Shown here: positions 12,150 through 27,354 of the stretch, piece by piece
Layout: every line of letters starts with the position of its first letter
Position numbering within the stretch: position 1 is the first letter of the stretch
IMG/VR virus record: IMGVR_UViG_3300009151_000031
Length of the DNA: 64,000 nucleotides
Source of the DNA: a virus
Strand: one strand, 5' to 3'
Translations under genes and position numbers: made by a program
The notes under the pieces: model-generated
Databases searched by the model: none
What the model was told of the DNA's origin: nothing
What the model saw: the letters and a program-made list of their open reading frames with translations, nothing else

Positions 12150-12155
12150 AGTTAG

Positions 12156-12269: not shown

Positions 12270-12276
12270 ATCCTAA

Positions 12277-12350: not shown

Positions 12351-12359
12351 TTTTAACAT

Positions 12360-12628: not shown

Positions 12629-12635
12629 AAATCAT

Positions 12636-12713: not shown

Positions 12714-12741
12714 ATAAATCTTTTTAATGTATAATAGGTAT

Positions 12742-13050
12742 ATGATGAATAAATTAATCCGTGATGGTCAAGTTGCTGTACTAGTAAGTCCAGGATATGG
12801 TGCTGGCTGGTACTCGTGGCATTCAATTGAAGAACTGGTCTACGATCCTAGCATAGTAGAGTGGTTAGAACAAGGTGAAATGCCAAAAATTCAAGCATAC
12901 TTGGCCTTAAAATACAAAGATGAGTATTTTGGTGGCCTAGAAGATTTAGTAGTAATGTGGGTACCTGAAGGAGCTCGGTTTCGTATTAAAGAATATGACG
13001 GAGCAGAGAGCTTGGTACTTGAATCACAAGAACGCTGGATGACAGCATAA
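12742..13050 (+). CDS. Hypothetical protein (start probably 12742)
   Basis: VAVLVSPGYGAGWYSW, FRIKEYDGAESL; ATG 6 nt after TATAAT. Confidence 0.7.
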   Translation: MMNKLIRDGQVAVLVSPGYGAGWYSWHSIEELVYDPSIVEWLEQGEMPKIQAYLALKYKDEYFGGLEDLVVMWVPEGARFRIKEYDGAESLVLESQERWMTA

Positions 13051-13059
13051 GGAGGCCGT

Positions 13060-13524
13060 ATGTCCTGGATTGAAAATGTAGCGGCTGTAGATGTGTCTAG
13101 CGGATTCCATCATGCGGCTGGTCCTAACAGTATGCTGATTAGTATTGCTGACTGTGGTAGTTGGCGCCCAGAATCAAAGCACGAATTCAAGGAGCGTCAC
13201 AACTTTGAGTTTCTTGATATTGAGCTTAACGATTTTGCTTTAGAAGAAGCAATGCGTTGTAGCCAAGAGCAAGCAGATGAATTAGTTCGTTTGCTACAAC
13301 ATGCACTGGCTAATCGTATGAATGTGGTTGTACATTGTACCGCTGGCATTTGTAGATCCGGTGCAGTAACAGAAGTTGGAGTTATGTTAGGTTTTGATGA
13401 TACTGAACGGTTTCGTAGTCCTAATTTGTTAGTAAAACATCGTATGATGAAAGCCCTTGGGTGGACATACAATGAAAACGAAAAGCCAAACATTGATGAC
13501 TGGCGTACTTTTAGGAGTGTCTGA
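13060..13524 (+). CDS. Cys-based (PTP/dual-specificity) phosphatase
   Basis: VHCTAGICRSG = HCx5R P-loop; RBS AAGGAGG. Confidence 0.8.
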   Translation: MSWIENVAAVDVSSGFHHAAGPNSMLISIADCGSWRPESKHEFKERHNFEFLDIELNDFALEEAMRCSQEQADELVRLLQHALANRMNVVVHCTAGICRSGAVTEVGVMLGFDDTERFRSPNLLVKHRMMKALGWTYNENEKPNIDDWRTFRSV

Positions 13525-13721
13525 TGACAATTAATGCTATTTCACAATATAATAATAAAATATTTAATTTGATGGCTGTAAAGCAGTTGGATTTTAGACA
13601 TGAAGAACTTCGCTTAGAAGCAGTTCGAGTAAAAGAACAGCTTGAAGAAAATGAGCAAAAACGAATTGAAATGAATCGCCGGATGAATCGGCCCGGACAA
13701 AATGTTGATAAACTAGCGTAA
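13524..13721 (+). CDS. Small basic coiled-coil hypothetical protein
   Basis: TGATG overlap; ends PGQNVDKLA. Confidence 0.6.
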   Translation: MTINAISQYNNKIFNLMAVKQLDFRHEELRLEAVRVKEQLEENEQKRIEMNRRMNRPGQNVDKLA

Positions 13722-13743
13722 CTCAAATTGAAAGGAGTATAAT

Positions 13744-14346
13744 ATGCCAGCAGTATTTTTAGTAAGCGACACGCACTTTGGTCATGCCGGTGTATGCCGT
13801 TTTACCCGCAACGATGGTGTTACAAAACTTCGCCCATGGGATGATGCAGACGAAATGGATGAATTCATGGTCAAGGCCTGGAACGAACGTGTTCGTCCTA
13901 ACGATAAAGTTTATCACTTAGGCGATGTAGTTATTAACCGTAAAAGTCTTGCTATTATGCGTAGGCTCAACGGGGATAAAGTTCTTATCCGTGGTAACCA
14001 CGATATCTTTAAGGACACTGACTATCGTGAACATTTCCGTGAACTTCGTGCATACCATGTGATGAATGGAATGATTCTTAGTCACATTCCTGTACACGTA
14101 GAGTCACTTGGTCGGTTTGGTGTTAACATTCACGGACACTTACACGCAAATCGTGTTAAGAAAATTCGTGGAGTAAACGCCAAGACAGGTGAACTTCTGT
14201 ACAGTGATGAACCAGATGTACGCTACCATTGCGTATGTGTGGAGCAAACTGACTTTGCACCTATTCTGTTTGAAGATGTTATCAAACGTATTGAAGCAGA
14301 AGGTGGTTCCGTGGGTTTCCGTAACGGTAACGGCCCTACGATGTAA
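13744..14346 (+). CDS. Calcineurin-like metallophosphoesterase
   Basis: SDTHFGH, YHLGDV, GNHD, LSHIP, HGHLH. Confidence 0.88.
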   Translation: MPAVFLVSDTHFGHAGVCRFTRNDGVTKLRPWDDADEMDEFMVKAWNERVRPNDKVYHLGDVVINRKSLAIMRRLNGDKVLIRGNHDIFKDTDYREHFRELRAYHVMNGMILSHIPVHVESLGRFGVNIHGHLHANRVKKIRGVNAKTGELLYSDEPDVRYHCVCVEQTDFAPILFEDVIKRIEAEGGSVGFRNGNGPTM

Positions 14347-14406
14347 GAACAGTCTTGGACACGCAGACTTTAAAGCGAGGTGGGAGTAGGTGGAAGCCCT
14401 GCATCT

Positions 14407-14515
14407 ATATAAAAACACATCTATGATCTGGGATATGCGAATGCGTACATATAAACTAAGATCCCACTTGTTAGTGGGTACGGGAGTGGGAATCTCCCTA
14501 GGTGTGTTTCTATAT
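14407..14515 (+). ncRNA. Closed-stem three-hairpin element abutting tRNA-Met
   Basis: 17-nt outer stem (15 WC, 1 GU, 1 mismatch) enclosing GATCT/AGATC, CCCAC/GTGGG, GGGAG/CTCCC. Confidence 0.55.
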
Positions 14516-14590
14516 GGAAATATAGCACAGCGGTAGTGCATCGCCTTCATACGGCGCAGGTCAGTAGTTCAAATCTACTTATTTCCACCA
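14516..14590 (+). tRNA. trnM: tRNA-Met(CAT), elongator type
   Basis: loop TTCATAC, paired G1-C72, A73, CCA. Confidence 0.8.
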
Positions 14591-14594
14591 ATTA

Positions 14595-14673
14595 CGGAGT
14601 GTAGGAAAGTCTGGCTTAATCCGCCTCGTTTGGGACGAGGAGACCGAAGGTTCGAATCCTTCCATTCCGACCA
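14595..14673 (+). tRNA. trnP: tRNA-Pro(TGG)
   Basis: CCTCG-TTTGGGA-CGAGG, C1-G72, A73, CCA. Confidence 0.93.
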
Positions 14674-14678
14674 TATAT

Positions 14679-14754
14679 AGGACTTTAGCTCAGTTGGTAG
14701 AGCGTCTGCCTTACACGCAGAATGTCGTCAGTTCGAACCTGGCAAGTCCTACCA
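14679..14754 (+). tRNA. trnV: tRNA-Val(TAC)
   Basis: TCTGC-CTTACAC-GCAGA, CCA. Confidence 0.95.
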
Positions 14755-14757
14755 TTT

Positions 14758-14833
14758 GCCCCTATAGCTCAGTTGGTAGAGCACCGCCTTGATAAGGCGT
14801 AGGTCCCTGGTTCGAGTCCAGGTGGAGGCACCA
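14758..14833 (+). tRNA. trnI: tRNA-Ile(GAT)
   Basis: loop TTGATAA, A73, CCA; one C-A mismatch in acceptor. Confidence 0.9.
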
Positions 14834-14837
14834 ATAT

Positions 14838-14914
14838 CGGCCTTTAACTCAATTGGATAGAGTGCAAGTCTTCGAAACTTGAAGTTGGGAGTTCGAATCT
14901 CTCAGGGCCGGCCA
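14838..14914 (+). tRNA. trnR: tRNA-Arg(TCG)
   Basis: CAAGT-CTTCGAA-ACTTG, CCA. Confidence 0.92.
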
Positions 14915-14920
14915 AATTAC

Positions 14921-14996
14921 AGGACGTTAGCTCAGCCGGTAGAGCAGTAGACTTTTAATCTATTGGTCGTGGGTTCGATCCCCGCACGTCCTACCA
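14921..14996 (+). tRNA. trnK: tRNA-Lys(TTT)
   Basis: GTAGA-CTTTTAA-TCTAT, A73, CCA. Confidence 0.95.
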
Positions 14997-14998
14997 AT

Positions 14999-15074
14999 GC
15001 TACTTTAGCTGATGTGGTCATAGCGGCGGTTTGAAGAACCGTTGAACTAGGTTCGATTCCTAGAGGTAGCACCA
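14999..15074 (+). tRNA. trnF: tRNA-Phe(GAA)
   Basis: GCGGT-TTGAAGA-ACCGT, CCA. Confidence 0.92.
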
Positions 15075-15083
15075 AATTATTGT

Positions 15084-15157
15084 TGGGGGTTAGTGTAGCG
15101 GTAACACTACAGACTTTGACTCTGTCATCACTGGTTCGATCCCAGTACCCTCTGCCA
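15084..15157 (+). tRNA. trnQ: tRNA-Gln(TTG)
   Basis: ACAGA-CTTTGAC-TCTGT, 1-72 mismatch, G73, CCA. Confidence 0.93.
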
Positions 15158-15163
15158 AATTAC

Positions 15164-15238
15164 CTCGCCTTAGTATAATGGATAATACAGTAGGCTTCTA
15201 CCCTACGAATGTGGGTTCGATTCCTGCAGGCGAGGCCA
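15164..15238 (+). tRNA. trnR: tRNA-Arg(TCT)
   Basis: GTAGG-CTTCTAC-CCTAC, G73, CCA. Confidence 0.93.
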
Positions 15239-15244
15239 AACAAT

Positions 15245-15320
15245 GGTGACTATAGTGTAAAGGTTAACACCACGGATTGTGATTCCGTTAATATGGGTTC
15301 GATTCCCATTAGTTACCCCA
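15245..15320 (+). tRNA. trnH: tRNA-His(GTG)
   Basis: G-1/C73, ACGGA-TTGTGAT-TCCGT, CCA. Confidence 0.95.
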
Positions 15321-15328
15321 ATCAATAT

Positions 15329-15406
15329 ACCCCTGTAGGCAAATTGGTAAAGCCAACTCTCTTAAAAGGAGTAGTCTTCCCTGTTCGAATCAGGGCAGGG
15401 GTACCA
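15329..15406 (+). tRNA. tRNA with TAA anticodon and short variable region (atypical Leu?)
   Basis: ACTCT-CTTAAAA-GGAGT, 6-nt variable region AGTCTT, acceptor ACCCCTG/CAGGGGT, A73, CCA. Confidence 0.75.
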
Positions 15407-15411
15407 ATCAA

Positions 15412-15501
15412 GGAAGTGTGTCTGAGTCCGGCTTAAGGAAACAGTCTTGAAAACTGTCGGCTGTAAAAGGTCCGTGGGTTCGAATCCCACCGCTTCCGCC
15501 A
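15412..15501 (+). tRNA. trnS: tRNA-Ser(TGA)
   Basis: ACAGT-CTTGAAA-ACTGT, long variable arm, G73, CCA. Confidence 0.95.
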
Positions 15502-16803
15502 TTAATAAATGCTTAACTTGCCTTCGATGCAATGCAAGTATCGTGTTTGATCGTTCTTAAAATCCTGCGCTTTAACTGCGCCAGTACTAGGAATACTACT
15601 GTCACCGATGTAATACATTGGACTAATGTATTGCTTAAGGTCTCGTAATTGTCCGTCTAGAGTTTTTGTAATGTATCTAGCATCTAAGTTAGTAGACATA
15701 AATTCTACACCGGCTTCCCAAATCTGATATTGTTTAGTATCGATAAAATTTTGAAAGAACCAATTATCCATTTCTGCTCTGATGCCGGTAGTAGGTTTAG
15801 CAACTTGGAAGGTATTAAAGTCATAGTCGGGATAAACAATAGCACGTACAAGACCTTCGTACGTAGTGCGGTTATAGTGATCGCCATTGGGCCAGCGTAC
15901 AGCACTTTGGAAATTATAATGCATGGGCATTTCAAACCATTGTCGTACCATGTGTGCTTGTTTAGTTAACATTGCACAACTATCTGGTGACCAGTAAAAC
16001 AGTTCTGTTGTCACATTGGTAATATCACCCATGTCTGCGCTGTTGTGATTAGCAAGTGGATCTTGGAAATACAAGAACCACCGACAGTCTTTGACACACA
16101 GCTTGGGTTTATCGCAGCCAAATACCATGGCAATACGTATATTGCAATCAACCAAGTTCTTTTGTTCTGCACTACTGGCCACAGTATGCTTTGACCATTG
16201 TCCAGGCTGTAATGCATGACGAGTGCGAAAGATCCAAGACTCATCTGTACCTTGACGATCGATCAAATCGTCTGTGTAATCGTGTATGGTAATTTTTGTA
16301 GCAGGATAGTTTGCGGCAATCCAATTCATTATTGGTTTGACAGCAAAATCAAACTCGCTGAGATGATTGGCAGAACTGGTATCCCAGGGATTGCCTGATG
16401 CGTTTTTATCTGCTTGTTTTGGGTAACGATAGATAACTTCGTCTAAGTGTATTCCGTTAAGCAAAAACGCAAATGCTACTGTGGCACTATCGGCACCACC
16501 GCTTAACTCTAGACGTACATAGTCATAGTTATCGCGAATAGATTGTGCGCGACGTCGATACAGTTCACGTATATCTTCTTCGGGCTCAATATGCCAGGCA
16601 TGTTTTAAGAATACATCTTCGTTAAATAGCCAGCGCACAGGATCGTTATTGAGATTGTGTGCATGACCGGGAAGTTTTGAACCAGCTAAGATTGCTTGGT
16701 TTTTATTATAAAATACTTCATTACCTAAAGTATAGTAGCCAAGTTTTTTGTTTGGTTCAAATTTAATACCACCTGCAGAGGTGTGTTCAATTTTAGGTAG
16801 CAT
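15502..16803 (-). CDS. PP-loop (adenine nucleotide alpha hydrolase) family protein
   Basis: RLELSGGADSATV motif; TAAATA motifs upstream on minus strand near 16840-16850. Confidence 0.65.
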   Translation of the reverse strand: MLPKIEHTSAGGIKFEPNKKLGYYTLGNEVFYNKNQAILAGSKLPGHAHNLNNDPVRWLFNEDVFLKHAWHIEPEEDIRELYRRRAQSIRDNYDYVRLELSGGADSATVAFAFLLNGIHLDEVIYRYPKQADKNASGNPWDTSSANHLSEFDFAVKPIMNWIAANYPATKITIHDYTDDLIDRQGTDESWIFRTRHALQPGQWSKHTVASSAEQKNLVDCNIRIAMVFGCDKPKLCVKDCRWFLYFQDPLANHNSADMGDITNVTTELFYWSPDSCAMLTKQAHMVRQWFEMPMHYNFQSAVRWPNGDHYNRTTYEGLVRAIVYPDYDFNTFQVAKPTTGIRAEMDNWFFQNFIDTKQYQIWEAGVEFMSTNLDARYITKTLDGQLRDLKQYISPMYYIGDSSIPSTGAVKAQDFKNDQTRYLHCIEGKLSIY

Positions 16804-16829
16804 AGTTGATTATAACAGATAAGTAAGTG

Positions 16830-16858
16830 TTGACGCAAGTATTTATTTAATATATAAT
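16830..16858 (+). promoter_or_regulatory. sigma70 promoter, back-to-back with minus-strand late motif
   Basis: TTGACG-17 nt-TATAAT. Confidence 0.75.
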
Positions 16859-16879
16859 ACATCAATAATGAAAGGTGAT

Positions 16880-17023
16880 ATGAGCCATAACGACACACTC
16901 AATCGAGCATACGGTAATATCCCAAAAGAAGTCGGATACACAGTTGACTTCAGTTTCATGCCATTTCATCGCCCAGTTAAGTATTTTTGGCTTACCTGGA
17001 TTGTAAGAAAGTTTTTTAGATAA
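16880..17023 (+). CDS. 47-aa hypothetical protein MSHNDTLNRAYGNIPKEVG...WIVRKFFR
   Basis: RBS AAAGGTG; below ORF-track cutoff; alternative ATG 16868. Confidence 0.6.
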   Translation: MSHNDTLNRAYGNIPKEVGYTVDFSFMPFHRPVKYFWLTWIVRKFFR

Positions 17024-17028
17024 TCTAA

Positions 17029-17103
17029 CGCGGGGTACGTCAGTGGTAGACCGCCAGGCTCATAACCTGGAAGACGGAGGTTCGAATCCTTCCCCCGCAA
17101 CCA
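17029..17103 (+). tRNA. trnfM: Initiator tRNA-fMet(CAT)
   Basis: C1-A72 mismatch, CCAGG-CTCATAA-CCTGG, CCA. Confidence 0.9.
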
Positions 17104-17106
17104 AAT

Positions 17107-18186
17107 ATGTTACACCTAATACTACACCCATTAAAACGCCCAGCCGAAAAACAAGTTGATCTACTTGTTGCAACCTTAGACATGCACGGAATTGATTACG
17201 TTAAATGTAGTATTGACAAGGTTCCAGCAGGAGCCACAATCATCACAGATTGTTTTATAATGGAAACTCCTTGTGGAGATCCGGGCAATGATATTGCTAG
17301 TAATATTATAGATCATGCCGCAAGTCACAATAACAAAATTGTATTTTATTATCCTAGCGAAAGCTACGCAACATTATCGGCAAGTTTTTGCCCTACCGCA
17401 GAAGCAATACAAGAAAAAAATGTCAAGGGATATTTAGTAAAGTGTGGTGACTGGGATATAGATGGTTACGTAAAAAATTATAACATGCCAGAGTTTTTTG
17501 CATGGATACTTAATAATGAATTTAATCGTACCAGATTAGACTATACACACAGTCTGATAGATACTATGACAAAGTCACACAAGTTCCTATTCTTTAACGG
17601 AGAGTTCCGCAACAATAGAGAACGCTTCTTTGAATTGTTTAAAGAGGCTGGATTACTTGAATCAAGTATATGGAGTCATAGGTCGGGCAAGAGTGCAGAA
17701 GGCTTCGGTCCTGACAAAGATTGGCCGGATCCATTTATACATCCAGACTTTAGATTTTATGCATATTATCCTAGTCATTATTATGACACTAGTATAAGCA
17801 TTGTGAGTGAAACTACACAAACAGAATTCTTCCCTACGGAAAAGACCTATAAGAGTTTAATGCTAGGACATCCATTTGCTGTGTATGGCGGGCAACATAG
17901 TCTACGTAAACTGCAAGCATTAGGATTTGAAACGTTTGGCGATAGCATAGATGAAACGTATGACAACTGCGAGTGGCCAGAAGAACGTGCCAATGTTCTA
18001 ATAGAAAGTCTAAAAAATTGCAGTATTCCACGACCCAGTAACCATAATAGGCTACAATTTCAGAAAGTGGCTAATTCAGCATACAATCATCTGTTAAATA
18101 TCTTGCAAGATATAGATAATAATGTTATAATAAAAGAGAACTTTGCAGTCAGTAGTTCTGTTTTGAACAAGTATTTTTTAAATTAA
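17107..18186 (+). CDS. Putative glycosyltransferase-like protein
   Basis: C-terminal SIVSET..FPTEKTYKSL...PF.VYG...LRKL..LGFETF..IDETYD, GT10-like by inference. Confidence 0.45.
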   Translation: MLHLILHPLKRPAEKQVDLLVATLDMHGIDYVKCSIDKVPAGATIITDCFIMETPCGDPGNDIASNIIDHAASHNNKIVFYYPSESYATLSASFCPTAEAIQEKNVKGYLVKCGDWDIDGYVKNYNMPEFFAWILNNEFNRTRLDYTHSLIDTMTKSHKFLFFNGEFRNNRERFFELFKEAGLLESSIWSHRSGKSAEGFGPDKDWPDPFIHPDFRFYAYYPSHYYDTSISIVSETTQTEFFPTEKTYKSLMLGHPFAVYGGQHSLRKLQALGFETFGDSIDETYDNCEWPEERANVLIESLKNCSIPRPSNHNRLQFQKVANSAYNHLLNILQDIDNNVIIKENFAVSSSVLNKYFLN

Positions 18187-18195
18187 AGGATTACA

Positions 18196-18423
18196 ATGCC
18201 ACAGTACATCAGCCGCGGAGCATCAATTGACACAGAAAAATGTGTTGCAGAAGCAGGTGGAAATAGATTTGATTTAGTCATTATGGCCACTCAACGTGCC
18301 AGAGAAATTAAACAACGTAATCAACATAGTGTAAAGCATGAGCATCTACATGGTGTAGTTACAGCACTAATAGAAATACAAGATGGTAATGTAGATCCCA
18401 ATTGGAAACAAAAAGTTCGATGA
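18196..18423 (+). CDS. rpoZ: RNA polymerase omega subunit homolog
   Basis: GNRFDLVIMATQRAREI and VTALIEIQDG match omega NRFDLV..A..RAR / ALREIEEG. Confidence 0.8.
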   Translation: MPQYISRGASIDTEKCVAEAGGNRFDLVIMATQRAREIKQRNQHSVKHEHLHGVVTALIEIQDGNVDPNWKQKVR

Positions 18424-18857
18424 AACCAAAGTTTCAACAGCTATATATAACTATAGCAAGTACAGTAGCAACAATGAGTACAGCACGTCGCCTACAAGTT
18501 GGTGCTATTGTGGTCAAAGATGATCGTGTTATTAGTATGGGCTACAATGGTATGCCTAGTGGGTGGGACAATAATTGCGAAGATGAAATATGTTGGCCCA
18601 ATGGGGAAATAAAGTTTTTAACAACTAAACCGGAGGTACTTCATGCTGAAACTAATGCAATCGCTAAGTTGGCAAGATCAAACGAGTCTGGCCTTGGTGC
18701 TACTATGTTCATTACTCACTCACCTTGCTTGGACTGTGCCAAATTGGTTTACCAATCTGGTATCAATACTGTTTATTATCGCAATAGTTATCGTAACGAA
18801 GAAGGCATACAATTCCTGGAAAAAGCAGGAGTAGAAGTAGTAAAATTAGAAGATTAA
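18420..18857 (+). CDS. dCMP deaminase (ComEB-like)
   Basis: GYNGMPSG, HAETNAI, SPCLDCAK zinc motifs. Confidence 0.9.
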   Translation: MKPKFQQLYITIASTVATMSTARRLQVGAIVVKDDRVISMGYNGMPSGWDNNCEDEICWPNGEIKFLTTKPEVLHAETNAIAKLARSNESGLGATMFITHSPCLDCAKLVYQSGINTVYYRNSYRNEEGIQFLEKAGVEVVKLED

Positions 18858-18858
18858 C

Positions 18859-18934
18859 GGGGGTGTAGCTCATTTGGGAGAGCGCCTGCTTTGCAAGCAG
18901 GATGTAGCAAGTTCGATCCTTGTCACCTCCACCA
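18859..18934 (+). tRNA. trnA: tRNA-Ala(TGC)
   Basis: G3-U70, CCTGC-TTTGCAA-GCAGG, CCA. Confidence 0.95.
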
Positions 18935-18940
18935 AAATAA

Positions 18941-19028
18941 GGAAAGTTGGCCGAGTGGTTAAGGCAACGGTTTGCTAAACCGTCGTCCCGAAAGGGGCGC
19001 ATAGGTTCGAATCCTATACTTTCCGCCA
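18941..19028 (+). tRNA. trnS: tRNA-Ser(GCT)
   Basis: ACGGT-TTGCTAA-ACCGT, long variable arm, G73, CCA. Confidence 0.95.
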
Positions 19029-19093
19029 AATTGTATCAAAAAAGTGTAAACGACAATAAATAAGTACATATACACTTACCAGGAGTTTCCCCC

Positions 19094-20059
19094 ATGAGTC
19101 AAACACGTACAATACGTTGGGTTTTATACCACGAACCAGTTGATTTGTTTTTGCGTACAGCCAAGGCATTCAGCGAAGAAATCGCTCGTACAACCAACGG
19201 CCGTTTAGCAGTTGAAATTTTAACAACACAAGAGTTTGCTGACAAATACAACAAAGATGCTGGCCTAGAACCATTGACTTGGATGCAGTCAGGCGATGCA
19301 GAAATGACACAAGTTCAAGTTGTGCATTTAGGTATTTGGCATGCTCCAGAGTTTTTTGCACTGGAATTGCCATTCTTGTTTGATAGTCACGAACATGCTA
19401 CTCGCGTACTAGAAGGAGATATTGGTGAAACTATGCTAGGCGATCTAGATAGCAAGACTCCGGTACACGGTTTAGCATTCACATATTCAGGCGGTTATCG
19501 TTGTTTAGCACTCGACCGTGAAATTAGTAAAGCTGAAGATCTTCAAGGTCTTAAGATGGTGACTAATACAAACCCAGTATCAATTGATACAGCAGAAGCA
19601 TTTGGATGCGTTGCAGTACCAGTCAATCTAAAAGAAGCAGTAAACGTTAATAGAAACAACGACAACAATCACAACGGCAACAACGCAATCGAAACAACAT
19701 TGCCACGTTATGAAAAAGAAGCCAAGAGTGCAGTACATACACACGTAAGCAATACACGTCACAGCATGTATCTAACAAGTATTTTAATTAGTAAGGACTT
19801 CTGGGCAAGTTTAAGTGCAGAAGATCAAGCGTCTATCAAGGCAGCGGCAATGCACAGTTCTGCATTAGAACGCCATTGGACTGTTAATGATAGTGCCAAG
19901 ATTGCTAACAGCACAGAAGAACAAGCTAAAATGGGCATTAGTTATACTGAGTTTGCTGATAGCGAACGTGCTAAATTAAAAGAATTAGTACAGCCAATGT
20001 ACAACAAGTATCGCCAAATCTTTGGCGTTGATCTAGTAGATGGAATTATCAAGGGATAA
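19094..20059 (+). CDS. TRAP/DctP-family solute-binding protein paralog 3, no signal peptide
   Basis: HEPVDLFLRTA, ALELPFLFDSHEHATRVLEG, YSGGYRC, DLQGLK, ISKDFWASLSAEDQ. Confidence 0.8.
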   Translation: MSQTRTIRWVLYHEPVDLFLRTAKAFSEEIARTTNGRLAVEILTTQEFADKYNKDAGLEPLTWMQSGDAEMTQVQVVHLGIWHAPEFFALELPFLFDSHEHATRVLEGDIGETMLGDLDSKTPVHGLAFTYSGGYRCLALDREISKAEDLQGLKMVTNTNPVSIDTAEAFGCVAVPVNLKEAVNVNRNNDNNHNGNNAIETTLPRYEKEAKSAVHTHVSNTRHSMYLTSILISKDFWASLSAEDQASIKAAAMHSSALERHWTVNDSAKIANSTEEQAKMGISYTEFADSERAKLKELVQPMYNKYRQIFGVDLVDGIIKG

Positions 20060-20707
20060 ATGAAAGACTTTAGTTTTTCAATTCTTAAAAATAACGAAGT
20101 ACAAAAAATAACATTCCAGGACTTAGCCTTAAACAAGCGAGTCCTGGTTTGCTCTGTTGTCCGTATGCAAACCCATGTTTCGGATTTGTATGTTAAAGAA
20201 TTAATTAAGCAAACTACTAGTTACAAACAACAAGGCATTGACGAAGTTTATCTAATAAACTCATGCCATGGACTATTTGCACTTGCAAGATTTGATAAGA
20301 TATTTCCGGAAATTACAATGTTAGCAGATACTGATAATCAATTTGTAACGTGGATTAGTAGTACGGTAAACAAAGCTACGCAGACTATAGATAATTTATC
20401 AAAGTATTGGAGTTATCAAGTACTACTGAACAATGGCAAAATAGAGCAATTTTACGAACAGCCAACTGAAAATTATATTAGACATTTAATTAAGGCTGGA
20501 CACAAACCAAATTTGGCACACCAAAAGTTTTTTATAACCGAAGGCGACACAGTTGCATTACATCGCCCTGGGTTAAGTAGAGAAGAACAAAATACATTTG
20601 GACATTTGCCATTTGATGGTGCTCGGTGTACTCCGTTGGAGTTTATGTATTTTAATCTTTGTCCAAACACTAAATTAAATCAATATTTGCTTGACACACA
20701 GGTGTAA
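20060..20707 (+). CDS. Degenerate Prx5/redoxin-fold protein 3
   Basis: DLALNKRVLV, QGIDEVYLIN, MLADTDNQF, WSYQVLLNNGKIEQFYEQP. Confidence 0.55.
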   Translation: MKDFSFSILKNNEVQKITFQDLALNKRVLVCSVVRMQTHVSDLYVKELIKQTTSYKQQGIDEVYLINSCHGLFALARFDKIFPEITMLADTDNQFVTWISSTVNKATQTIDNLSKYWSYQVLLNNGKIEQFYEQPTENYIRHLIKAGHKPNLAHQKFFITEGDTVALHRPGLSREEQNTFGHLPFDGARCTPLEFMYFNLCPNTKLNQYLLDTQV

Positions 20708-20719
20708 CTAGTATATAAT
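20691..20719 (+). promoter_or_regulatory. sigma70 promoter for 256-nt RNA and tRNA-Thr
   Basis: TTGACA-17 nt-TATAAT. Confidence 0.85.
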
Positions 20720-20727
20720 TAATACAA

Positions 20728-20983
20728 GTAATAAGTTTGGGTACATGGTGTGGCGACCATCTGATACATGTGGTAGTCTTAGTAATAGTATGTAACACAC
20801 GACCCCGTGGCACTGATACTGCAAAATCGGGTACTCCCGAGGGTACAAGGAATTTTAAAACTATGAACAGGTGCAAGAGTCCATGAAAAAGCCTGTGAAG
20901 GCAAGCTATTTAGCCGAGTCGCTCTTGGTTAGCATTGTGGTCCACTGTCGAAAAGCAGATTTAGGTGTACCCAAACTTATTAC
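20728..20983 (+). ncRNA. Candidate 256-nt structured RNA with paired ends
   Basis: Perfect 18-bp terminal stem GTAATAAGTTTGGGTACA/TGTACCCAAACTTATTAC starting at predicted TSS; internal hairpins. Confidence 0.7.
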
Positions 20984-20998
20984 ATTAAATAGTATTAT

Positions 20999-21074
20999 GC
21001 CCTTTTAGCTCATTTGGTAGAGCAACGCACTTGTAATGCGTAGGTGGTCAGTTCGAATCCGACAAAGGGCACCA
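20999..21074 (+). tRNA. trnT: tRNA-Thr(TGT)
   Basis: ACGCA-CTTGTAA-TGCGT, CCA. Confidence 0.95.
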
Positions 21075-21089
21075 TTTTAACGAGGATAT

Positions 21090-21266
21090 ATGACAGAAGA
21101 AAAGAAAAGTAAGAATCCTTTTATTAACTTGGCAAATGCCGCAAAAGCGGCGGCCGGAGTACCAAGTACACCTGGATCTAAGACAGCAGAAGTTCAAAAA
21201 GCTAAATTTGGCACACAAGTACAGGGTAACAAACCAGCTAAACGAAGTGCTGGCAGAGGCAGATAA
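21090..21266 (+). CDS. 58-aa basic low-complexity protein MTEEKKSKNPF...KRSAGRGR
   Basis: RBS GAGGA; below ORF-track cutoff. Confidence 0.65.
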   Translation: MTEEKKSKNPFINLANAAKAAAGVPSTPGSKTAEVQKAKFGTQVQGNKPAKRSAGRGR

Positions 21267-21311
21267 GCATAAATAAAGCTATAGAGTACCATACTTGATT
21301 TAGGAAAAATT

Positions 21312-21854
21312 ATGCACATTATATCATCCACAGATCCTTGGGATTTAACCACACGTCAAATTGATATTGGTTTACTGGTGTCGGCGCTTAACACAGCATC
21401 ATCGTCAACCGGGTCAGCATCTATTCAGATCAACGGAACAACAGTTGCATCTGGGATTGCTGTATCTAATATTGCCGCGAGCAACGAAACAATTGATCCA
21501 ATTGGTGCAGATCATGCACAATTGACTATTCACAGCATTTATGCAAATATTTCACGTAACGATGCCACACAAGGTCCTATTACAGTTCGTGTAACTGCCG
21601 ATGAAGGTAGTGCGGATTTGTTATGGTGCTATACAGGCTCTAAATCAATACAATATTTTCGTACTGTAAATGGTGTTATAGAATACGGTCCTAGAGGTAA
21701 CACATTACCAAGATTTGACCCAACTCTCGGAACCGTTCAAACTCCAACAGGCGGTGGTGTAGGCAATGTAGAGTTAGGGTATGGATGGAAAACTATTCCT
21801 TCAGCTGGTAGCGTTGTTGTAGATATAACCGGTATTTTAGGTAATATCGCTTAA
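21312..21854 (+). CDS. Late, beta-rich hypothetical (possibly virion) protein
   Basis: ATAAATA near 21269, RBS AGGAAA, followed by terminator. Confidence 0.6.
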   Translation: MHIISSTDPWDLTTRQIDIGLLVSALNTASSSTGSASIQINGTTVASGIAVSNIAASNETIDPIGADHAQLTIHSIYANISRNDATQGPITVRVTADEGSADLLWCYTGSKSIQYFRTVNGVIEYGPRGNTLPRFDPTLGTVQTPTGGGVGNVELGYGWKTIPSAGSVVVDITGILGNIA

Positions 21855-21871
21855 TTACCACATGCCACAAT

Positions 21872-21899
21872 AATCCGCTCTTTTGGGCGGATTTTTTTT
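21872..21899 (+). terminator. Rho-independent terminator
   Basis: AATCCGCTC-TTTT-GGGCGGATT + T run. Confidence 0.85.
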
Positions 21900-21926
21900 G
21901 ACCTTTAATTCTTTCTATGTTATACT
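21898..21926 (+). promoter_or_regulatory. sigma70 promoter
   Basis: TTGACC-17 nt-TATACT. Confidence 0.75.
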
Positions 21927-21955
21927 AGATATTAGTTAAACCCTAGGAGTAATAA

Positions 21956-22120
21956 ATGTTTGAATCACTAGAAATCCGCAGAGTTGCAAATGGTTTTATT
22001 TTGGTAGTTAATACCGAAGAAGATGCCACTGAGTTTGTGTACGATACTGAACGCAAATTAATGCGTGTAGTTAAACAGTACCTTGGAGAGCGTGTAAGCA
22101 AGGATGAGTTGGCTGATTAA
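21956..22120 (+). CDS. 54-aa hypothetical protein MFESLEIRRVANGFILVV...
   Basis: RBS AGGAG; TAATG overlap with next gene. Confidence 0.7.
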   Translation: MFESLEIRRVANGFILVVNTEEDATEFVYDTERKLMRVVKQYLGERVSKDELAD

Positions 22121-22761
22121 TGAGTATTGCCGATTATTTAACAAATAACCCGGTTGCTAAATTACAACTAGGGTGTGGTGGTAATATGTTGCAGGGCTGG
22201 TGCAATACCGATGGTCAAAGTGACGGCTGGTATCATCCCAACGGGATCAAGTTAGATGCCAGTAAGCCTTTTCCCGTTGCCGACGATAGTTTTGATTATG
22301 TATTCAGCGAGCACATGATTGAGCATCTTGATTATTGGGCCGGGTACCGTATGCTAGAAGAATCATTTAGGGTAATGAAACCAGGCGCTCGTATTCGTAT
22401 CAGTTGCCCGTCAATTGATTTGCTCATGCAAATTTGCGCCGATAAAGAGCATCCTGACCATCGAGCCTACATTGAATTTTTATTAAATGAACCCGACAAA
22501 GAGCCTTTTGTGGATACCATGTTTATCTTTAATAAAATGTTTAGATTTTGTGGGCATACACATATCTATACTAAAACAGGTTTAGTAACTACCATGGAGG
22601 CAGTTGGGTTTGCGGACTTCAGTGAACATAAGATCATTGAAAGCAACGATCCTAACTTGGCAGGATTAGAAAAAGTTTGGCACATGCCTGACTTTGATGG
22701 ACATAACAGTCGTATCCTGCAAATGGAAACTATGACAATAGAAGCAGTTAAGCCAAAATAA
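22120..22761 (+). CDS. SAM-dependent methyltransferase (type 11-like)
   Basis: LQLGCGG, LDASKPFP, FDYVFSEHMIEHL, RVMKPGARIRISCP. Confidence 0.85.
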   Translation: MSIADYLTNNPVAKLQLGCGGNMLQGWCNTDGQSDGWYHPNGIKLDASKPFPVADDSFDYVFSEHMIEHLDYWAGYRMLEESFRVMKPGARIRISCPSIDLLMQICADKEHPDHRAYIEFLLNEPDKEPFVDTMFIFNKMFRFCGHTHIYTKTGLVTTMEAVGFADFSEHKIIESNDPNLAGLEKVWHMPDFDGHNSRILQMETMTIEAVKPK

Positions 22762-22785
22762 AACCGCCCAAAGGCGGTTTTTTAA
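22759..22785. terminator. Bidirectional terminator between convergent genes
   Basis: AAAACCGCC-CAAA-GGCGGTTTTTT. Confidence 0.8.
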
Positions 22786-22797
22786 TGACTGTAAATG

Positions 22798-23829
22798 TTA
22801 ACGCTCAAACAACTTACGCTCAAAGTTTTCACGTAATTCATCTGCGGTACGATTAGCTTGATACCATTCGATGGTCTTTGCAATGCCATCTTTAAAACTA
22901 ACAGTAGGTTGCCAACCTAACCATAGTTTCTGATTAGTAGTATCTGCCGCACGAGCATGTACACCTTCTGGCTTACTACGATCAAAGAAGAAACCATCAG
23001 CTGGCTGATATCCCATAATGTCACATACTGTTTGGACTGCATCGGCGATCTTGGTAATTTCGCTAGTGCCAATGTTGATACTACGGCAGTCAGTAATGTT
23101 TTCACAGGCTAGTTTTAACCCTTCAACGATATCGCTTACATAGGTAAAGTTACGATCTTGTTGTCCACTGCCCCAAACCTCATACGGGTTTTGTTCTATC
23201 ATGGCCTTGGCAATAAACGCAATAATAGCATGACTCTCGTTTTCACGTGGGCCGTATACAGTGAACAGTCGGCAACTTACACCCTTGGTACCATATTGTT
23301 TGTGATACCCTTTAAGTGCCATTTCACCCATGAACTTGGCCCAGCCATATTCGCCATCGGCCAAGGCGGCACCTTTAGTAAATGGATCGGCCATTTCTTC
23401 GCTTAGGTAACGTTGTTGATCTGGCCCATCTTCTTGTAAGTTAGTTGGGTACGCACAAGCACTTGACGTATATACAACTCGGTCGACATTGTTTAAATGG
23501 CTATAGTAAAATACGTTACCATCGATTAAAAAGTTTTGACTGATCTCGCCTGGGTGTGTTTCAATGAAGCCTCGTCCACCATGGATGTTGGCCAAGTGGA
23601 ATACAATGTCTTTATCTCGGGTCACATCTCGAGCAACATTGGCATCCCGTAAATCGCCTAATACAAAATTAATTTGGCCGCGAACTGTTTCGATGTTTTC
23701 AATCTTACCACTACTTAAATCGTCAACTACAGTAACGTGTGCGCCATCGGCCAATAGGCTTTCAACCAAGAAGCTACCAATAAAACAACAGCCGCCTGTG
23801 ACTAAAACTTTTTTATTTTTAAAAAACAT
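22798..23829 (-). CDS. NAD-dependent nucleotide-sugar epimerase/dehydratase
   Basis: VLVTGGCCFIGS, VFHLA, YGWAK (YxxxK), VWGSGQQDRNFTYVSD. Confidence 0.88.
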   Translation of the reverse strand: MFFKNKKVLVTGGCCFIGSFLVESLLADGAHVTVVDDLSSGKIENIETVRGQINFVLGDLRDANVARDVTRDKDIVFHLANIHGGRGFIETHPGEISQNFLIDGNVFYYSHLNNVDRVVYTSSACAYPTNLQEDGPDQQRYLSEEMADPFTKGAALADGEYGWAKFMGEMALKGYHKQYGTKGVSCRLFTVYGPRENESHAIIAFIAKAMIEQNPYEVWGSGQQDRNFTYVSDIVEGLKLACENITDCRSINIGTSEITKIADAVQTVCDIMGYQPADGFFFDRSKPEGVHARAADTTNQKLWLGWQPTVSFKDGIAKTIEWYQANRTADELRENFERKLFER

Positions 23830-23838
23830 ATTTTTCCT

Positions 23839-24633
23839 TTATTCGATGGTTACAGCATACAAGCAACTACGACCAGACTGAACAGGTATGTGCCATGCAC
23901 GTTCTGTTTCGCAAGTCATCAAGTAGTACTGCCCATCTTTTAATATAAATGCTGTTGGGTCAATGATGTTGTAACGGTTGTCCCAATCAAAATTAACGTT
24001 AACAATATCAACATTTTGTTTTGACATATCAATGCACCAACCAAATGGTCTATGTCTAATACTATCTCTATTAGATGCATAATTGTCGTGTCCAAATCCT
24101 ACAACTAAATTGTTGCCAATATCTAATCCGTTGCACCCACCACGTAATGTTGAGTAGCTATCCAGTGGTTGTATTTCCGTTGGCAAGTCTTGTGTAAACA
24201 CTGAGTATACTACATCACCCGCTAACTTTACTACCCTGAATGGAGAAATTTCATGCACAAAATAAATTTCGTCATTGTACACAAACGGTGCCCAATTTTT
24301 CCCTGGGCGTAGATTATCGCCCATATTGATTTGTATGCAATCCCATGTATCATCACTTTTGATATACAACTGCGGTATAAATTTGTTACCGGTAAACCTC
24401 ACTGAGTAGCATACCGGGATTCCAAGCAAATCAAACGCTCTAGGATCTTCGCCAGGACCTATTAGGGTACTGCCAATTTTGACCTGCGTATTGAACCAGT
24501 CTTGACGATTTACATGTCGAGAAAAAGTATGCTCAATGTCATCAACATAACATTGGCTATGGAACACATCAAAAGTTGTTGGAGTAAATTCAAATTGATT
24601 AATTATGGTACAATCAGTAATTGATATTTTCAT
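23839..24633 (-). CDS. Five-bladed beta-propeller glycosidase-like protein (GH130-like)
   Basis: GEDPRAF, KNWAPF, LRGG, GFGH motifs. Confidence 0.5.
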   Translation of the reverse strand: MKISITDCTIINQFEFTPTTFDVFHSQCYVDDIEHTFSRHVNRQDWFNTQVKIGSTLIGPGEDPRAFDLLGIPVCYSVRFTGNKFIPQLYIKSDDTWDCIQINMGDNLRPGKNWAPFVYNDEIYFVHEISPFRVVKLAGDVVYSVFTQDLPTEIQPLDSYSTLRGGCNGLDIGNNLVVGFGHDNYASNRDSIRHRPFGWCIDMSKQNVDIVNVNFDWDNRYNIIDPTAFILKDGQYYLMTCETERAWHIPVQSGRSCLYAVTIE

Positions 24634-24707
24634 TAAGTGTATTTATAATAGCATAAACTATGGCTCGCAAATAATTGAGCCAAACTTGGCTAAAAATAAA
24701 TACGTAT

Positions 24708-25577
24708 ATGAAAATCTATGACTGTTTTACGTTTTACAACGAACTCGACTTACTTGAATTTAGACTAGAAGAACTTTATGATCATGTTGATCATTTTGTC
24801 CTTGTGGAAGCAAACACAACATATACCAGCATACCTAAACCATTCTTGTTTGAAGAAAACAAAGAACGTTATGCCCGCTGGATGGATAAAATTATTCATG
24901 TTCGAGTGGAAGACATGCCCATGAATCCAGATGCCTGGGTAAACGACCGATTCCAGCGTGATCAAATTTATCGCGGCATCGCGGATGCTGATCATAATGA
25001 TTTAATTATAGTCAGTGACCTAGATGAAATTATACGCCCAGAAGCAATTGAGTATATGAAACAAAGCGATCAAAGTATATTTGCATTGCGTATGCCCTTG
25101 TTTAACTTCAAATTTAATTACATGAGGTTTAATCCTAATCAATATGATATTTGGGGCATGGCCGGAAGACGTATCTTTTTTGAAGATATCAAACCCGATG
25201 CATTTAGATTCTTGCGTTTTAATTTTATGGACAAGCCATACCAGTATCAAAATGACGGTTGCGAAGTCATTGAACACGGCGGTTGGCAGTTTAGTAACCT
25301 AGGCGACAACGAGTTTATGAAAAACAAACTTCGTAGTTTTGCTCATGCTGAAGTAAACTATCCAGAATATCTAGCACAAGTTGATATTGATGCTAGTATT
25401 GCCGAAGGCTTGGGTGTTGGCCGTAAGTTTGAGCAACAGGAATGGAAGCTAGTTGAAATAGACAGCTACTTTCCAAAAACATTGTTAAACAATCTAGACA
25501 AATATAAAAATTACATTTTGGACAATCCGGCAACTACAGCTCTTGCTATATTGCCCAAGTTCCCGTATAATAGTTAA
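24708..25577 (+). CDS. Glycosyltransferase family 17 (GnT-III-like)
   Basis: IYDCFTFYNELDLLEFRLEEL, FVLVEAN, SDLDEI, GWQFS; ATAAATA just upstream. Confidence 0.85.
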   Translation: MKIYDCFTFYNELDLLEFRLEELYDHVDHFVLVEANTTYTSIPKPFLFEENKERYARWMDKIIHVRVEDMPMNPDAWVNDRFQRDQIYRGIADADHNDLIIVSDLDEIIRPEAIEYMKQSDQSIFALRMPLFNFKFNYMRFNPNQYDIWGMAGRRIFFEDIKPDAFRFLRFNFMDKPYQYQNDGCEVIEHGGWQFSNLGDNEFMKNKLRSFAHAEVNYPEYLAQVDIDASIAEGLGVGRKFEQQEWKLVEIDSYFPKTLLNNLDKYKNYILDNPATTALAILPKFPYNS

Positions 25578-25594
25578 ATTCAAACAGGTATATA

Positions 25595-26635
25595 ATGGCA
25601 AAGACAGTTCTAATAACAGGTGGTGCTGGATTCATCGCGCATCACGTAATTGACAAAATTTTAAAAGACACAGACTGGAAGATTGTTTGTTTAGATCGAC
25701 TAGATATTTCTGGCAACCTAAACAGACTAGCAGACATGCTACACACGCACAATAAAGTGGATGTAACTCGGCGTTTGCGTATTGTATTCCATGATCTTAA
25801 AGCAGAACTAAATGAAATGATTGTCAAGGACATCGGTCCTGTTGATATTGTATTACATTTAGCGGCCGGCAGTCATGTGGATCGTTCAATTACATATCCA
25901 ATGGAATTTGTATTAGATAATACAGTTGGTACTGTTAACATGTTAGACTATGCTCGTAAACATTTGCCCGATCTAGAACGTTTTGTTTATTTTAGTACAG
26001 ATGAAATATTTGGTGTTGCTCCTCCTGGCGTCAGCTATAAAGAATACGATCGTTACAACAGCACAAACCCGTATTCAGCTAGCAAAGCAGCCGCAGAAGA
26101 GTTTTGCGTGGCATATGAAAACACATACAAAATGCCTATTGTGGTCACCCATACCATGAATGTATTTGGCGAACGTCAACATCCAGAAAAGTTTATTCCC
26201 ATGTGTATCCAACGTGCCAGAGATGGTGAACGAGTATATATTCACGCCAATGCAGACTGTACAGAAGCAGGCACACGTATGTATATCCATGCTCGAGATG
26301 TAGCAGAAGGCCTGATGTTCATTCTTAATACATTACCTCGAGATTACAAACACACAGGCGACTACGGATGGGCTCATTGTCCCAAGTTTAACCTGGTAGG
26401 CACAGAAGAAATTGATAACTTAACCTTGGCTCGCATGATTGCTGATGCACAAGGCCGAGAACTTAATTATGAAATGGTTGACTTCCACGGAAGCCGTCCC
26501 GGGCACGACTTACGCTATGCATTAGATGGCGGATTGTTAAAGCAACTTGGATGGGAACCCAAGATTAAATTAAGCGAACGCATTAAAGAAATGACACTTT
26601 GGACTTTGGAGAACACACGTTGGCTCAGCAAATAA
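25595..26635 (+). CDS. rfbB: dTDP-glucose 4,6-dehydratase-like
   Basis: TGGAGFIA, HLAAGSHVDRSI, STDEIFG, PYSASKA, RPGHDLRYALD. Confidence 0.85.
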   Translation: MAKTVLITGGAGFIAHHVIDKILKDTDWKIVCLDRLDISGNLNRLADMLHTHNKVDVTRRLRIVFHDLKAELNEMIVKDIGPVDIVLHLAAGSHVDRSITYPMEFVLDNTVGTVNMLDYARKHLPDLERFVYFSTDEIFGVAPPGVSYKEYDRYNSTNPYSASKAAAEEFCVAYENTYKMPIVVTHTMNVFGERQHPEKFIPMCIQRARDGERVYIHANADCTEAGTRMYIHARDVAEGLMFILNTLPRDYKHTGDYGWAHCPKFNLVGTEEIDNLTLARMIADAQGRELNYEMVDFHGSRPGHDLRYALDGGLLKQLGWEPKIKLSERIKEMTLWTLENTRWLSK

Positions 26636-27354
26636 CTAATACAAAACACGCATTCATTGTTACATCTGCTATTAATAGCAAGTTTGGTGTATTCAACCCA
26701 ATGCAACGTTTACAGCAAACCCTAGACACAATTAACAGTATTAAAAATAAAATACCCGCCGCTAAAATTATTATCTTAGAATGTTGTGGAGATCCTGTTA
26801 CACCCGAACAAGAAAACATACTTAGAAAAAGTTGTGATGTATATGTTGACTTTGGTACCGATCCAGACGTCAAGGACATGTACGATAACAACAACTGGGA
26901 CGTTGTAAAGAACGGAACAGAAATCATGGTATTTGGTCGCGCTTTGGCAATTTTAAATAAAGAAAATCAGTTTGCAGGAATTGATCGTATTCACAAAATG
27001 TCGGGACGATATGTATTAAACGACATGTTTGATCCGATGACATATGATCAATCTGAACTTGAAGATAAAATTATCATTGGACCAAAATGTCGAAGTCAGT
27101 TCCCGATTGAAGTAACTACCGTACCACTACAATACATGGCACGACTTTGGAGTTGGCCAACTAGTCGTATTGATGAAGTTATACAAGTATACAATGACAG
27201 TCTAATGTTCTTTGCAGAACGATTGGCAGTGGGTGGATACGTAGATATCGAACACGTACTGGCCAAGTTTCTAAATCCTGAAGTGGTACACGAAATTCAA
27301 AACATGGGCGTTGAAGGATGTATTGCACCCACTGGACAAGCTATTAAAAACTAA
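26620..27354 (+). CDS. Hypothetical, glycosylation-cluster protein (likely TTG start 26620)
   Basis: RBS GGAGA; HKMSGRY motif. Confidence 0.6.
   Translation: MAQQITNTKHAFIVTSAINSKFGVFNPMQRLQQTLDTINSIKNKIPAAKIIILECCGDPVTPEQENILRKSCDVYVDFGTDPDVKDMYDNNNWDVVKNGTEIMVFGRALAILNKENQFAGIDRIHKMSGRYVLNDMFDPMTYDQSELEDKIIIGPKCRSQFPIEVTTVPLQYMARLWSWPTSRIDEVIQVYNDSLMFFAERLAVGGYVDIEHVLAKFLNPEVVHEIQNMGVEGCIAPTGQAIKN

Follow-up and report, generated by a model that had tools for sequence, protein, structure and literature searches.

The 64,000-nucleotide (nt) stretch of DNA analysed here, from IMG/VR virus record IMGVR_UViG_3300009151_000031, is a 64-kb piece of the genome of a large phage and is referred to below as the window. 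At positions 20726-20983 of its plus strand it carries what is almost certainly a genuine RNA gene. The structured RNA family to which the product belongs is real and has not been catalogued before; it forms a new class among RNAs such as those known from phage tRNA islands. We regard it as fairly probable that the gene specifies a trans-acting, stable and compactly folded RNA of about 257 nt in freshwater jumbo phages. An initial annotation of the window had proposed an unassigned noncoding RNA with its own promoter at this place, and compensatory changes in 42 distinct homologues, together with the lack of a matching Rfam family and of a common reading frame, bore this out.

The consensus fold was derived with RNAalifold from eight and then from 38 sequences, and it differs from the minimum free energy (MFE) structure of the single sequence. 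A core of 56 base pairs was fixed, a covariance model (R1) was built and all copies were realigned to R1; an alignment fitted in this way favours the structure, but MAFFT alignments show the same helices. Among the 42 distinct sequences, 98.3% of the cells in the 56-pair core were paired, compared to 36-40% when the 3' partners were slid by 1-3 columns, and the covariation score was 0.335 as against 0.03-0.06 for the slid pairings. Compensatory changes were found in 30 of the 56 core pairs and 11 of the 12 helices had at least one, and none of 500 shuffles reached the observed values for paired cells, compensated pairs or covariation. R1 does not include the outermost 15 nt at each end and the terminal helix P1 was therefore tested separately on a MAFFT alignment, where 10 of its 19 pairs were compensated. 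Homologue covariation, which the initial annotation had named as a check, thus spoke for a structured RNA. G.U pairs are frequent and some are invariant, and these would be A.C on the opposite strand, which places the RNA on the plus strand. The single-sequence fold of the window copy had an MFE z-score of -3.3 and was not equalled by any of 200 shuffles in the folding test.

The homologues are 257-268 nt long and all metagenomic, coming from lake metagenomes and from IMG/VR phage contigs of up to 357 kb. The 215-amino-acid (aa) peroxiredoxin-like protein encoded upstream of the RNA has a graded series of metagenomic relatives, from 93% down to 42% identity, and the contigs encoding them are syntenic and have the same element of about 257 nt behind the same promoter. 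Further copies were retrieved from IMG/VR and JGI metagenomes with two invariant blocks as exact patterns; no loci related to the peroxiredoxin-like protein were found in IMG/VR, and two exact 23-mers from the window sequence had no match there. A search with R1 covered two genomes of 354 and 357 kb that are 98-100% complete (G001 and G002) and found exactly one copy in each; PA5oct, Atu_ph07 and XaC1 had no match. When positions 20680-21080 were compared by blastn (word size 11) with 50,697 phage records the RNA was unmatched, and only query positions 303-401 (spacer and tRNA-Thr) gave a match. As far as these searches reach, the RNA is confined to a single clade of freshwater jumbo phages that are uncultured and distantly related to PA5oct and Atu_ph07. 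Two weak candidates were set aside. An exact 21-mer scan over 185,579 prokaryote genomes gave a single match, in a Pyrinomonadaceae metagenome-assembled genome, which scored only 7.4 bits in R1 and is ascribed to chance, given this score and a match count about as predicted for 20 specified bases. A weak second R1 match in one contig (L032, one of the homologous loci numbered with the prefix L; positions 10873-10999, 15.9 bits, E 0.019) was taken as noise.

At the DNA level the RNA is 82-100% identical to the window copy in its relatives, compared to 65-88% for the upstream gene and 61-97% for the downstream genes. Among the 258 alignment columns 98 were invariant and another 36 nearly invariant in 38 sequences, about 20 of the invariant columns being imposed by the search pattern; sequences obtained with the other pattern differ there by single bases only. 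Every reading frame on both strands is closed within 20-25 codons in some member of the family, and the insertions and deletions among homologues are mostly not multiples of three. Given that no frame is open across the family, an open reading frame (ORF) does not account for the conservation, contrary to the internal-ORF explanation that the initial annotation had itself raised. The comparisons show that the RNA is non-coding and that its sequence and its 75-pair secondary structure (the 19 pairs of P1 and the 56-pair core) are under strong purifying selection.

According to our model, the fold would be a coaxial rod, P1-P2-P3, that carries two lobes built around three-way junctions. Its parts in the window are:

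20728-20746, plus strand: 5' arm of the P1 clamp, pairing with 20965-20983; 97.2% of cells paired, compared to 21-43% when slid (MAFFT alignment)
20965-20983, plus strand: 3' arm of the P1 clamp, covered by the same covariation test
20747-20758, plus strand: hairpin A, a GGU/ACC stem at the P1/P2 three-way junction; three of three pairs covary
20759-20763, plus strand: 5' strand of P2, AUCUG, pairing with CAGAU at 20956-20960; two pairs compensated, for example GUUUG/CAAAC in L007
20766-20773, plus strand: 5' strand of P3, ACA-U-GUGG, pairing with CCACUGU at 20942-20948; U20769 is an invariant bulge
20949-20955, plus strand: A-rich junction CGAAAAG leading from P3 to P2 on the 3' strand, near-invariant; the opposite strand is a 2-nt AU
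20776-20872, plus strand: lobe A, consisting of Px, an AGUA/GAA internal loop, P4, a variable insert, P5, P6 and P7
20776-20779 with 20869-20872, plus strand: Px, tentative closing helix of lobe A; 84% paired, one covarying pair
20785-20789 with 20860-20864, plus strand: P4 of lobe A; five of five pairs compensated
20802-20805 with 20841-20844, plus strand: P5 of lobe A, ACCC/GGGU, enclosing P6 and P7; changes one-sided only
20810-20822, plus strand: hairpin P6 of lobe A, with a GNRA loop in most relatives and compensated pairs
20827-20840, plus strand: hairpin P7 of lobe A, UCGGG/CCCGA, with compensated pairs
20881-20940, plus strand: lobe B, consisting of P8, P9, P10 and P11
20881-20886 with 20935-20940, plus strand: P8 of lobe B, with an invariant tandem U.G/G.U; compensated by C-G to U-A in L063 and L064 and by A-U to G-C in L065
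20891-20902, plus strand: P9 of lobe B, a GNGA hairpin; three compensated pairs
20905-20908 with 20930-20933, plus strand: P10 of lobe B; three compensated pairs
20913-20929, plus strand: hairpin P11 of lobe B, GCCGAG/CUUGGU; five compensated pairs

The terminal helix described in the initial annotation, running from 20728 to 20983, is indeed perfect over 18 bp (G20728-A20745 with U20966-C20983) and is lengthened by U20746.G20965. Its GCCT-GTGA-AGGC hairpin corresponds to P9 with the GNGA loop. The proposed ATGGT/ACCAT stem could be retained in part: GGU/ACC forms hairpin A, the A-U pairs on either side being part of P1 and P2. The other internal pairings (GTACTC/GGGTAC, CAAGAG/CTCTTG and CTG/CAG) found no support, covariation favouring P7, P11 and two long-range helices, P2 and P3. 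In P3, for instance, the third pair is A-U in 20 sequences, U-A in 15, C-G in two and G-C in two. The GUGGCG loop of hairpin A is invariant in 38 sequences, and the junction CGAAAAG is unchanging in the same set, partly owing to selection by the search pattern, with an A-to-G change in L066, which was obtained with an independent pattern; the sequences with compensatory changes in P8 also came from an independent pattern. P5 is not proven by covariation given that its changes are one-sided. The variable insert of lobe A forms a hairpin capped by GCAA in some phages, and the internal loop below P4 (AGUA/GAA) can be read as the consensus of a loop-E/bulged-G module. A mutual-information scan for additional or crossing helices gave only Px, which is nested, and one further pair extending P5. 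No pseudoknot was convincing, but most candidate tertiary partners never vary and cannot be judged by covariation.

The invariant sequence GAGGGUAC at 20839-20846 recurs exactly as the 3' acceptor strand in the phage tRNA-Trp (12074-12149), and P5 together with P7 resembles a short acceptor/T-arm minihelix, which could be due to chance or could be a trace of tRNA ancestry. The same sequence is exactly complementary to 8 nt of tRNA-Gln (15084-15157). When the invariant single-stranded blocks were tested for complementarity to the 27 tRNAs of the window, this was the only 8-mer match, and it is plausibly due to chance.

The gene and its immediate surroundings are laid out as follows:

20691-20719, plus strand: sigma-70 promoter, TTGACA (20691-20696), a 17-nt spacer and TATAAT (20714-20719)
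20726-20983, plus strand: RNA gene, 258 nt including the 5' AAG, scoring 239.9 bits in R1
20984-20998, plus strand: AU-rich 15-nt spacer between RNA and tRNA-Thr, AUUAAAUAGUAUUAU, kept in many relatives and missing in L003 and L007
20999-21074, plus strand: tRNA-Thr(UGU), found with ARAGORN and Rfam

The consensus promoter with a start at about 20726 that the initial annotation had pointed out agrees with the consensus at all 12 positions, and no other perfect TTGACA-17-TATAAT lies in 19000-22500; its predicted +1 is A20726. The tRNA-Thr that the initial annotation had placed 15 nt beyond the helix end is there as well. The same promoter is found at the same distance from the RNA in the homologues L001-L012, L036 and L050, and a weaker version (TTGACT, TATACT) in L017, L024 and L044. 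The conserved 5' AAG follows the end of the consensus or near-consensus sigma-70 promoter after a gap of 6 nt in the window and in many relatives. Downstream of this promoter the first terminator-like hairpin, with a 9-bp stem and a T-run, lies at 21872-21893, and the promoter at 20691 may thus drive the RNA, tRNA-Thr and two small ORFs (21090-21266 and 21312-21854) as a single unit. The tRNA-Thr would then be co-transcribed downstream of the RNA, and RNase P cleavage at its 5' end would free the RNA 3' end.

A different upstream neighbour is seen in seven homologues (L020, L022, L023, L027, L032, L042 and L055), in which the conserved AAG starts 0-2 nt past the CCA of a tRNA-Ser. ARAGORN reads this tRNA with anticodon GCU or 'ACU' in L020, L022 and L023. 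The ACT call (A34), made for the tRNA-Ser directly upstream of the RNA at L020 7049-7141, L023 1941-2033 and L018 3528-3617, is unusual in bacteria and phages: either this tRNA of 90-93 nt has an odd decoding role or its anticodon loop was miscalled. On the 3' side three arrangements were found: the conserved AU-rich spacer of about 15 nt followed by tRNA-Thr(UGU), tRNA-Thr after only 1-2 nt (L003 and L007), or a DctP-like gene preceded by an ATAAATA motif, with another gene instead in L024. In the window, tRNA-Ser(GCU) is located at 18941-19028 and a DctP/peroxiredoxin-like cassette lies between it and the RNA. Given that the tRNA-Ser is separated from the RNA by this inserted cassette, the ancestral gene order is read as tRNA-Ser(GCU), RNA, tRNA-Thr(UGU).

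The window contains three such paralogous cassettes (7542-9145, 10131-11580 and 19094-20707), each with a DctP-like solute-binding protein (PF03480, phrog_31178) and a peroxiredoxin-like protein and each adjoining tRNA genes. The position of the cassette relative to the RNA varies among relatives, which suggests that it is mobile inside the tRNA region. The tRNA-Thr(UGU) gene 3' of the RNA (window 20999-21074 compared with L001, L003, L005 and L007) comes in several quite different sequence types in close relatives whose RNAs are 82-100% identical, and turnover of the tRNA slot seems to outpace change in the RNA.

From this layout a pathway of maturation can be proposed. Host sigma-70 RNA polymerase would transcribe the RNA from the consensus promoter, as judged from the anatomy of the locus, and in sister phages it would be reached by read-through from tRNA-Ser, whose CCA lies 0-2 nt before the AAG; promoter start and tRNA-Ser 3' end would then both set the 5' end at the same AAG. 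At the other side, RNase P would cut at the 5' end of tRNA-Thr and exonucleolytic trimming back to P1 would produce the 3' end, the clamp of 18-19 bp sealing both ends against exonucleases. Within a tRNA operon the RNA takes the place that a tRNA would have. Most simply, it would be cut out by the nucleases that process tRNAs, and a tRNA-style maturation with ends set by these enzymes appears likely.

The roughly 100 invariant nucleotides (many of them unpaired), the GNRA loops, the loop-E-like module and the tandem G.U pairs would together point to a precise tertiary fold. Such a fold may in turn imply that the RNA binds another macromolecule, which could be a protein, an RNA from the translation or tRNA apparatus or a further copy of itself; this is the weakest step of the argument. 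The RNA would then be akin to GOLLD, ROOL and manA rather than to RNAs that pair with mRNAs or regulate in cis. A changing downstream neighbour and the lack of an expression platform argue against a riboswitch or leader, and we favour a trans-acting architectural or partner-binding RNA, possibly one that self-assembles.

Several observations weigh against this interpretation. A possible operon in the window starts with the RNA and continues with tRNA-Thr, the two small ORFs and the terminator at 21872, so that a role in cis is conceivable there. No conserved palindromic loop was seen that would clearly mediate self-assembly, and a UUUUAAA tract varies without keeping its self-complementarity. 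The outer P1 sequence UAAUAAGUUUGGG is near-invariant, which is more than a simple protective clamp needs. Furthermore, it is from the DNA that we infer transcription, ends and stability of the RNA.

In kind, the RNA comes closest to the structured RNAs already known from tRNA regions of phages: RNAC and RNAD of phage T4, GOLLD, ROOL and manA. By the tests run, the present RNA appears not to be homologous to any of these. No Rfam 15 family was found at the RNA, neither for the window copy (gathering thresholds over the whole window and E ≤ 10 over 20600-21100, the covariance-model check named in the initial annotation) nor for five other members of the family. On the two complete genomes at E ≤ 10, the only match of the ROOL model (RF03087) had 8 bits and lay elsewhere in G002, and the manA model (RF01745) had no match there or in the window. 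GOLLD, which was covered by the all-Rfam scans only, did not match at the RNA, and no description of the RNA was found in the literature on structured RNAs of jumbo phages or by its invariant 9- and 12-mers.

GOLLD and ROOL are phage RNAs that are 'often near tRNA islands' and self-assemble into RNA-only cages (10.1101/2024.12.08.627333). Like the present RNA they are phage-encoded and have complex multistem folds, with function and protein partner unknown (10.1101/2024.12.08.627333; PMC5737381), and GOLLD too was discovered in part in lake metagenomes. The location is also shared, as the RNA lies inside the 27-tRNA region of a jumbo phage and is flanked by tRNA-Ser and tRNA-Thr in relatives. 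However, at about 580 and over 800 nt ROOL and GOLLD exceed it in size by a factor of 2-3. Their secondary structures are different, and their self-assembly into cages is demonstrated, that of the present RNA hypothetical. The manA RNA forms an RNA-only 60-mer cage (10.64898/2026.07.01.735769); it is likewise phage-associated, compact and structured, but differs in architecture. RNAC and RNAD, also called species 1 and 2, are stable RNAs of the T4 tRNA region with no known biological role (PMC3014915). They resemble the present RNA as small stable RNAs in a phage tRNA cluster, presumably released from tRNA-containing transcripts. The blastn search of 20680-21080, whose 50,697 records include hundreds from phages of Escherichia, Shigella and other enterobacteria, gave no sign of homology. 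RNAC and RNAD are about 120-140 nt long, roughly half the size of the present RNA, to which the long clamp helix and the two junction lobes are peculiar.

Among the alternatives, we consider it possible, at a low probability, that the RNA is a decoy or sponge for one host protein: a tRNA-attacking defence nuclease, a ribosomal or translation factor recognising sarcin-ricin or loop-E structures, or RNA polymerase in the manner of 6S RNA. It is general knowledge that phage tRNA sets are linked to host defences that target tRNAs, and the AGUA/GAA bulged-G-type module, the four invariant GUGG motifs and the minihelix-like arrangement of P5 and P7 followed by GGGUAC in lobe A are compatible with such a role. 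However, two of the GUGG motifs are hidden inside helices, the Rfam models for tRNA, 6S RNA and Y RNA/YrlA had no match, and the fold is branched (four branch points in R1), not a rod with a central bubble as in 6S RNA. Neither Ro/TROVE (PF05731) nor RtcB was found in the two complete phage genomes. A decoy would moreover overlap with the partner-binding RNA that we favour, differing only in having a host protein as its partner.

Slightly less probable still, in our estimate, is a ribozyme, either a catalyst that processes phage tRNA transcripts (RNase P-like in action but non-homologous) or a self-processing RNA that cuts itself and its tRNA neighbours free. Catalysts are over-represented among large bacterial or phage RNAs that combine multistem junctions with many unpaired but invariant nucleotides, as argued for ROOL and raiA (PMC5737381), and the gene is located within an array of 27 tRNAs. 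The long-range helix P3 has its invariant bulged U 3 bp from the helix start, and features such as this bulge, the invariant tandem G.U and the A-rich junctions mark metal-binding cores. The order of elements (terminal helix, hairpin, long-range helix around two domains) is loosely that of RNase P RNA, which likewise has a terminal helix, a long-range helix with a conserved bulged U around two domains, GNRA loops and a functional association with tRNA genes. This resemblance is topological only, in that P3 with its bulged U encloses both lobes. RNase P RNA is 330-400 nt long compared to 257 nt here, and its hairpin lies between P2 and P4, whereas that of the present RNA lies between P1 and P2. 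The CR-I pattern of RNase P, which we take to be GNAANNUCNGNG around the bulged U of P4, agrees with the sequence around U20769 (GAUACAUGUGGU) at four of seven specified positions; CR-V, presumably ACNNNANNNNGNNUA, is absent, as UUGUGGU precedes the 3' strand CCACUGU and no AC...A motif is present. The initial annotation had likewise excluded RNase P RNA, and neither of the models for bacterial RNase P types A and B (RF00010 and RF00011) matched the RNA at E ≤ 10; in G001 and G002 the former gave only a 30-nt match of 7.7 bits about 250 kb from the RNA and the latter none. Its exclusion of transfer-messenger RNA (tmRNA) was confirmed too, given that ARAGORN and Rfam found none in the window and the RNA ends in UUAUUAC without CCA. 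No self-cleaving ribozyme family appeared in the full Rfam scans, RnpA had no match in the two complete phage genomes, and RNase P is already supplied by the host.

We regard it as unlikely that the element acts in cis for processing or stabilisation, with P1 as an RNase III-type stem comparable to those flanking rRNAs or with the whole as a structured 5' leader of the tRNA-Thr operon. A perfect duplex of 18-19 bp is about the size of an RNase III substrate, the near-invariance of the outer part of P1 would suit a recognition site for a nuclease, and the window has no terminator between the RNA and the tRNA-Thr and two small ORFs that follow it. However, an interior of about 220 nt with about 100 invariant positions and 11 covarying helices far exceeds what a stem or leader needs, and the RNA stays constant while its neighbour changes between unrelated tRNA-Thr types, a DctP-like gene with its own promoter motif and the other gene of L024. 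There is also no expression platform and no terminator/antiterminator alternative, and a phage RNase III was not found, the best match in the two complete genomes being a non-significant one of 12 bits in one of them.

That there is no RNA gene at all, the exact 18-bp inverted repeat with its 220-bp spacing working at the DNA level (origin, recombination or packaging site), one of the overlapping short ORFs of 41-68 codons encoding a small protein, or the fold being due to chance, is highly improbable and, as far as sequence analysis goes, already refuted, given that the interior helices covary, that the many G.U pairs, some of them invariant, would turn into A.C mismatches in a DNA cruciform or on the opposite strand, that a conserved promoter or a tRNA lies immediately upstream in the right orientation, that no frame is open across the family and that no shuffled sequence folds as well.

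The phage that carries the RNA was characterised from the window. Its proteins include GroEL, ribonucleotide reductase, helicases, dCMP deaminase and the three DctP-like proteins; a DnaB-like helicase shares about 50% identity with its counterparts in the jumbo phages PA5oct, Atu_ph07 and Phosso, and no record in the collection of 50,697 phages was close at the DNA level. The 27 tRNA genes found with ARAGORN at 6914-21074 cover all 20 amino acids and each encodes its CCA; inside the sub-clusters 11829-12149 and 14516-15501 the spacers between them are very short. A 75-aa ORF at 18196-18423 (its homologue in L001 at 637-864) has homologues with a precomputed match to the RNA polymerase omega subunit (PF01192, RNA_pol_Rpb6); it adjoins the dCMP deaminase gene and is near sigma-70-type promoters of the phage. 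Beyond the RNA, the region 22120-31414 encodes methyltransferases and a nucleotide-sugar epimerase (PF01370), and a fusion of mannose-6-phosphate isomerase and cytidylyltransferase is encoded at 4563-5297; this suggests a phage-encoded sugar-modification pathway.

Large, conserved multi-junction RNAs are rare beyond rRNA, RNase P, introns and a few 'ornate' RNAs, and several of them are catalysts or self-assembling cages. The present RNA is a well-defined addition to the growing and unexplained set of structured RNAs from phage tRNA islands, with a fixed place between two tRNA genes, and it provides a new model for the Rfam-style annotation of freshwater viromes. It has unusually many invariant nucleotides, and its compact size of about 257 nt suits in-vitro transcription, chemical probing and cryo-electron microscopy. 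We can imagine, as a speculative outcome of low probability, that it represents a class with a biochemistry of its own: it could be a ribozyme with an evolutionary origin separate from that of RNase P and with tRNA transcripts as its substrates, or its subunits of about 260 nt could self-assemble into an RNA-only particle. In either form it would be deployed with the private tRNA set for the takeover of translation. The phages that carry the RNA are of up to 357 kb and have a complete decoding set. With so well-defined a member of the group, the question whether such RNAs serve tRNA and translation takeover, evasion of defence or encapsulation becomes testable.

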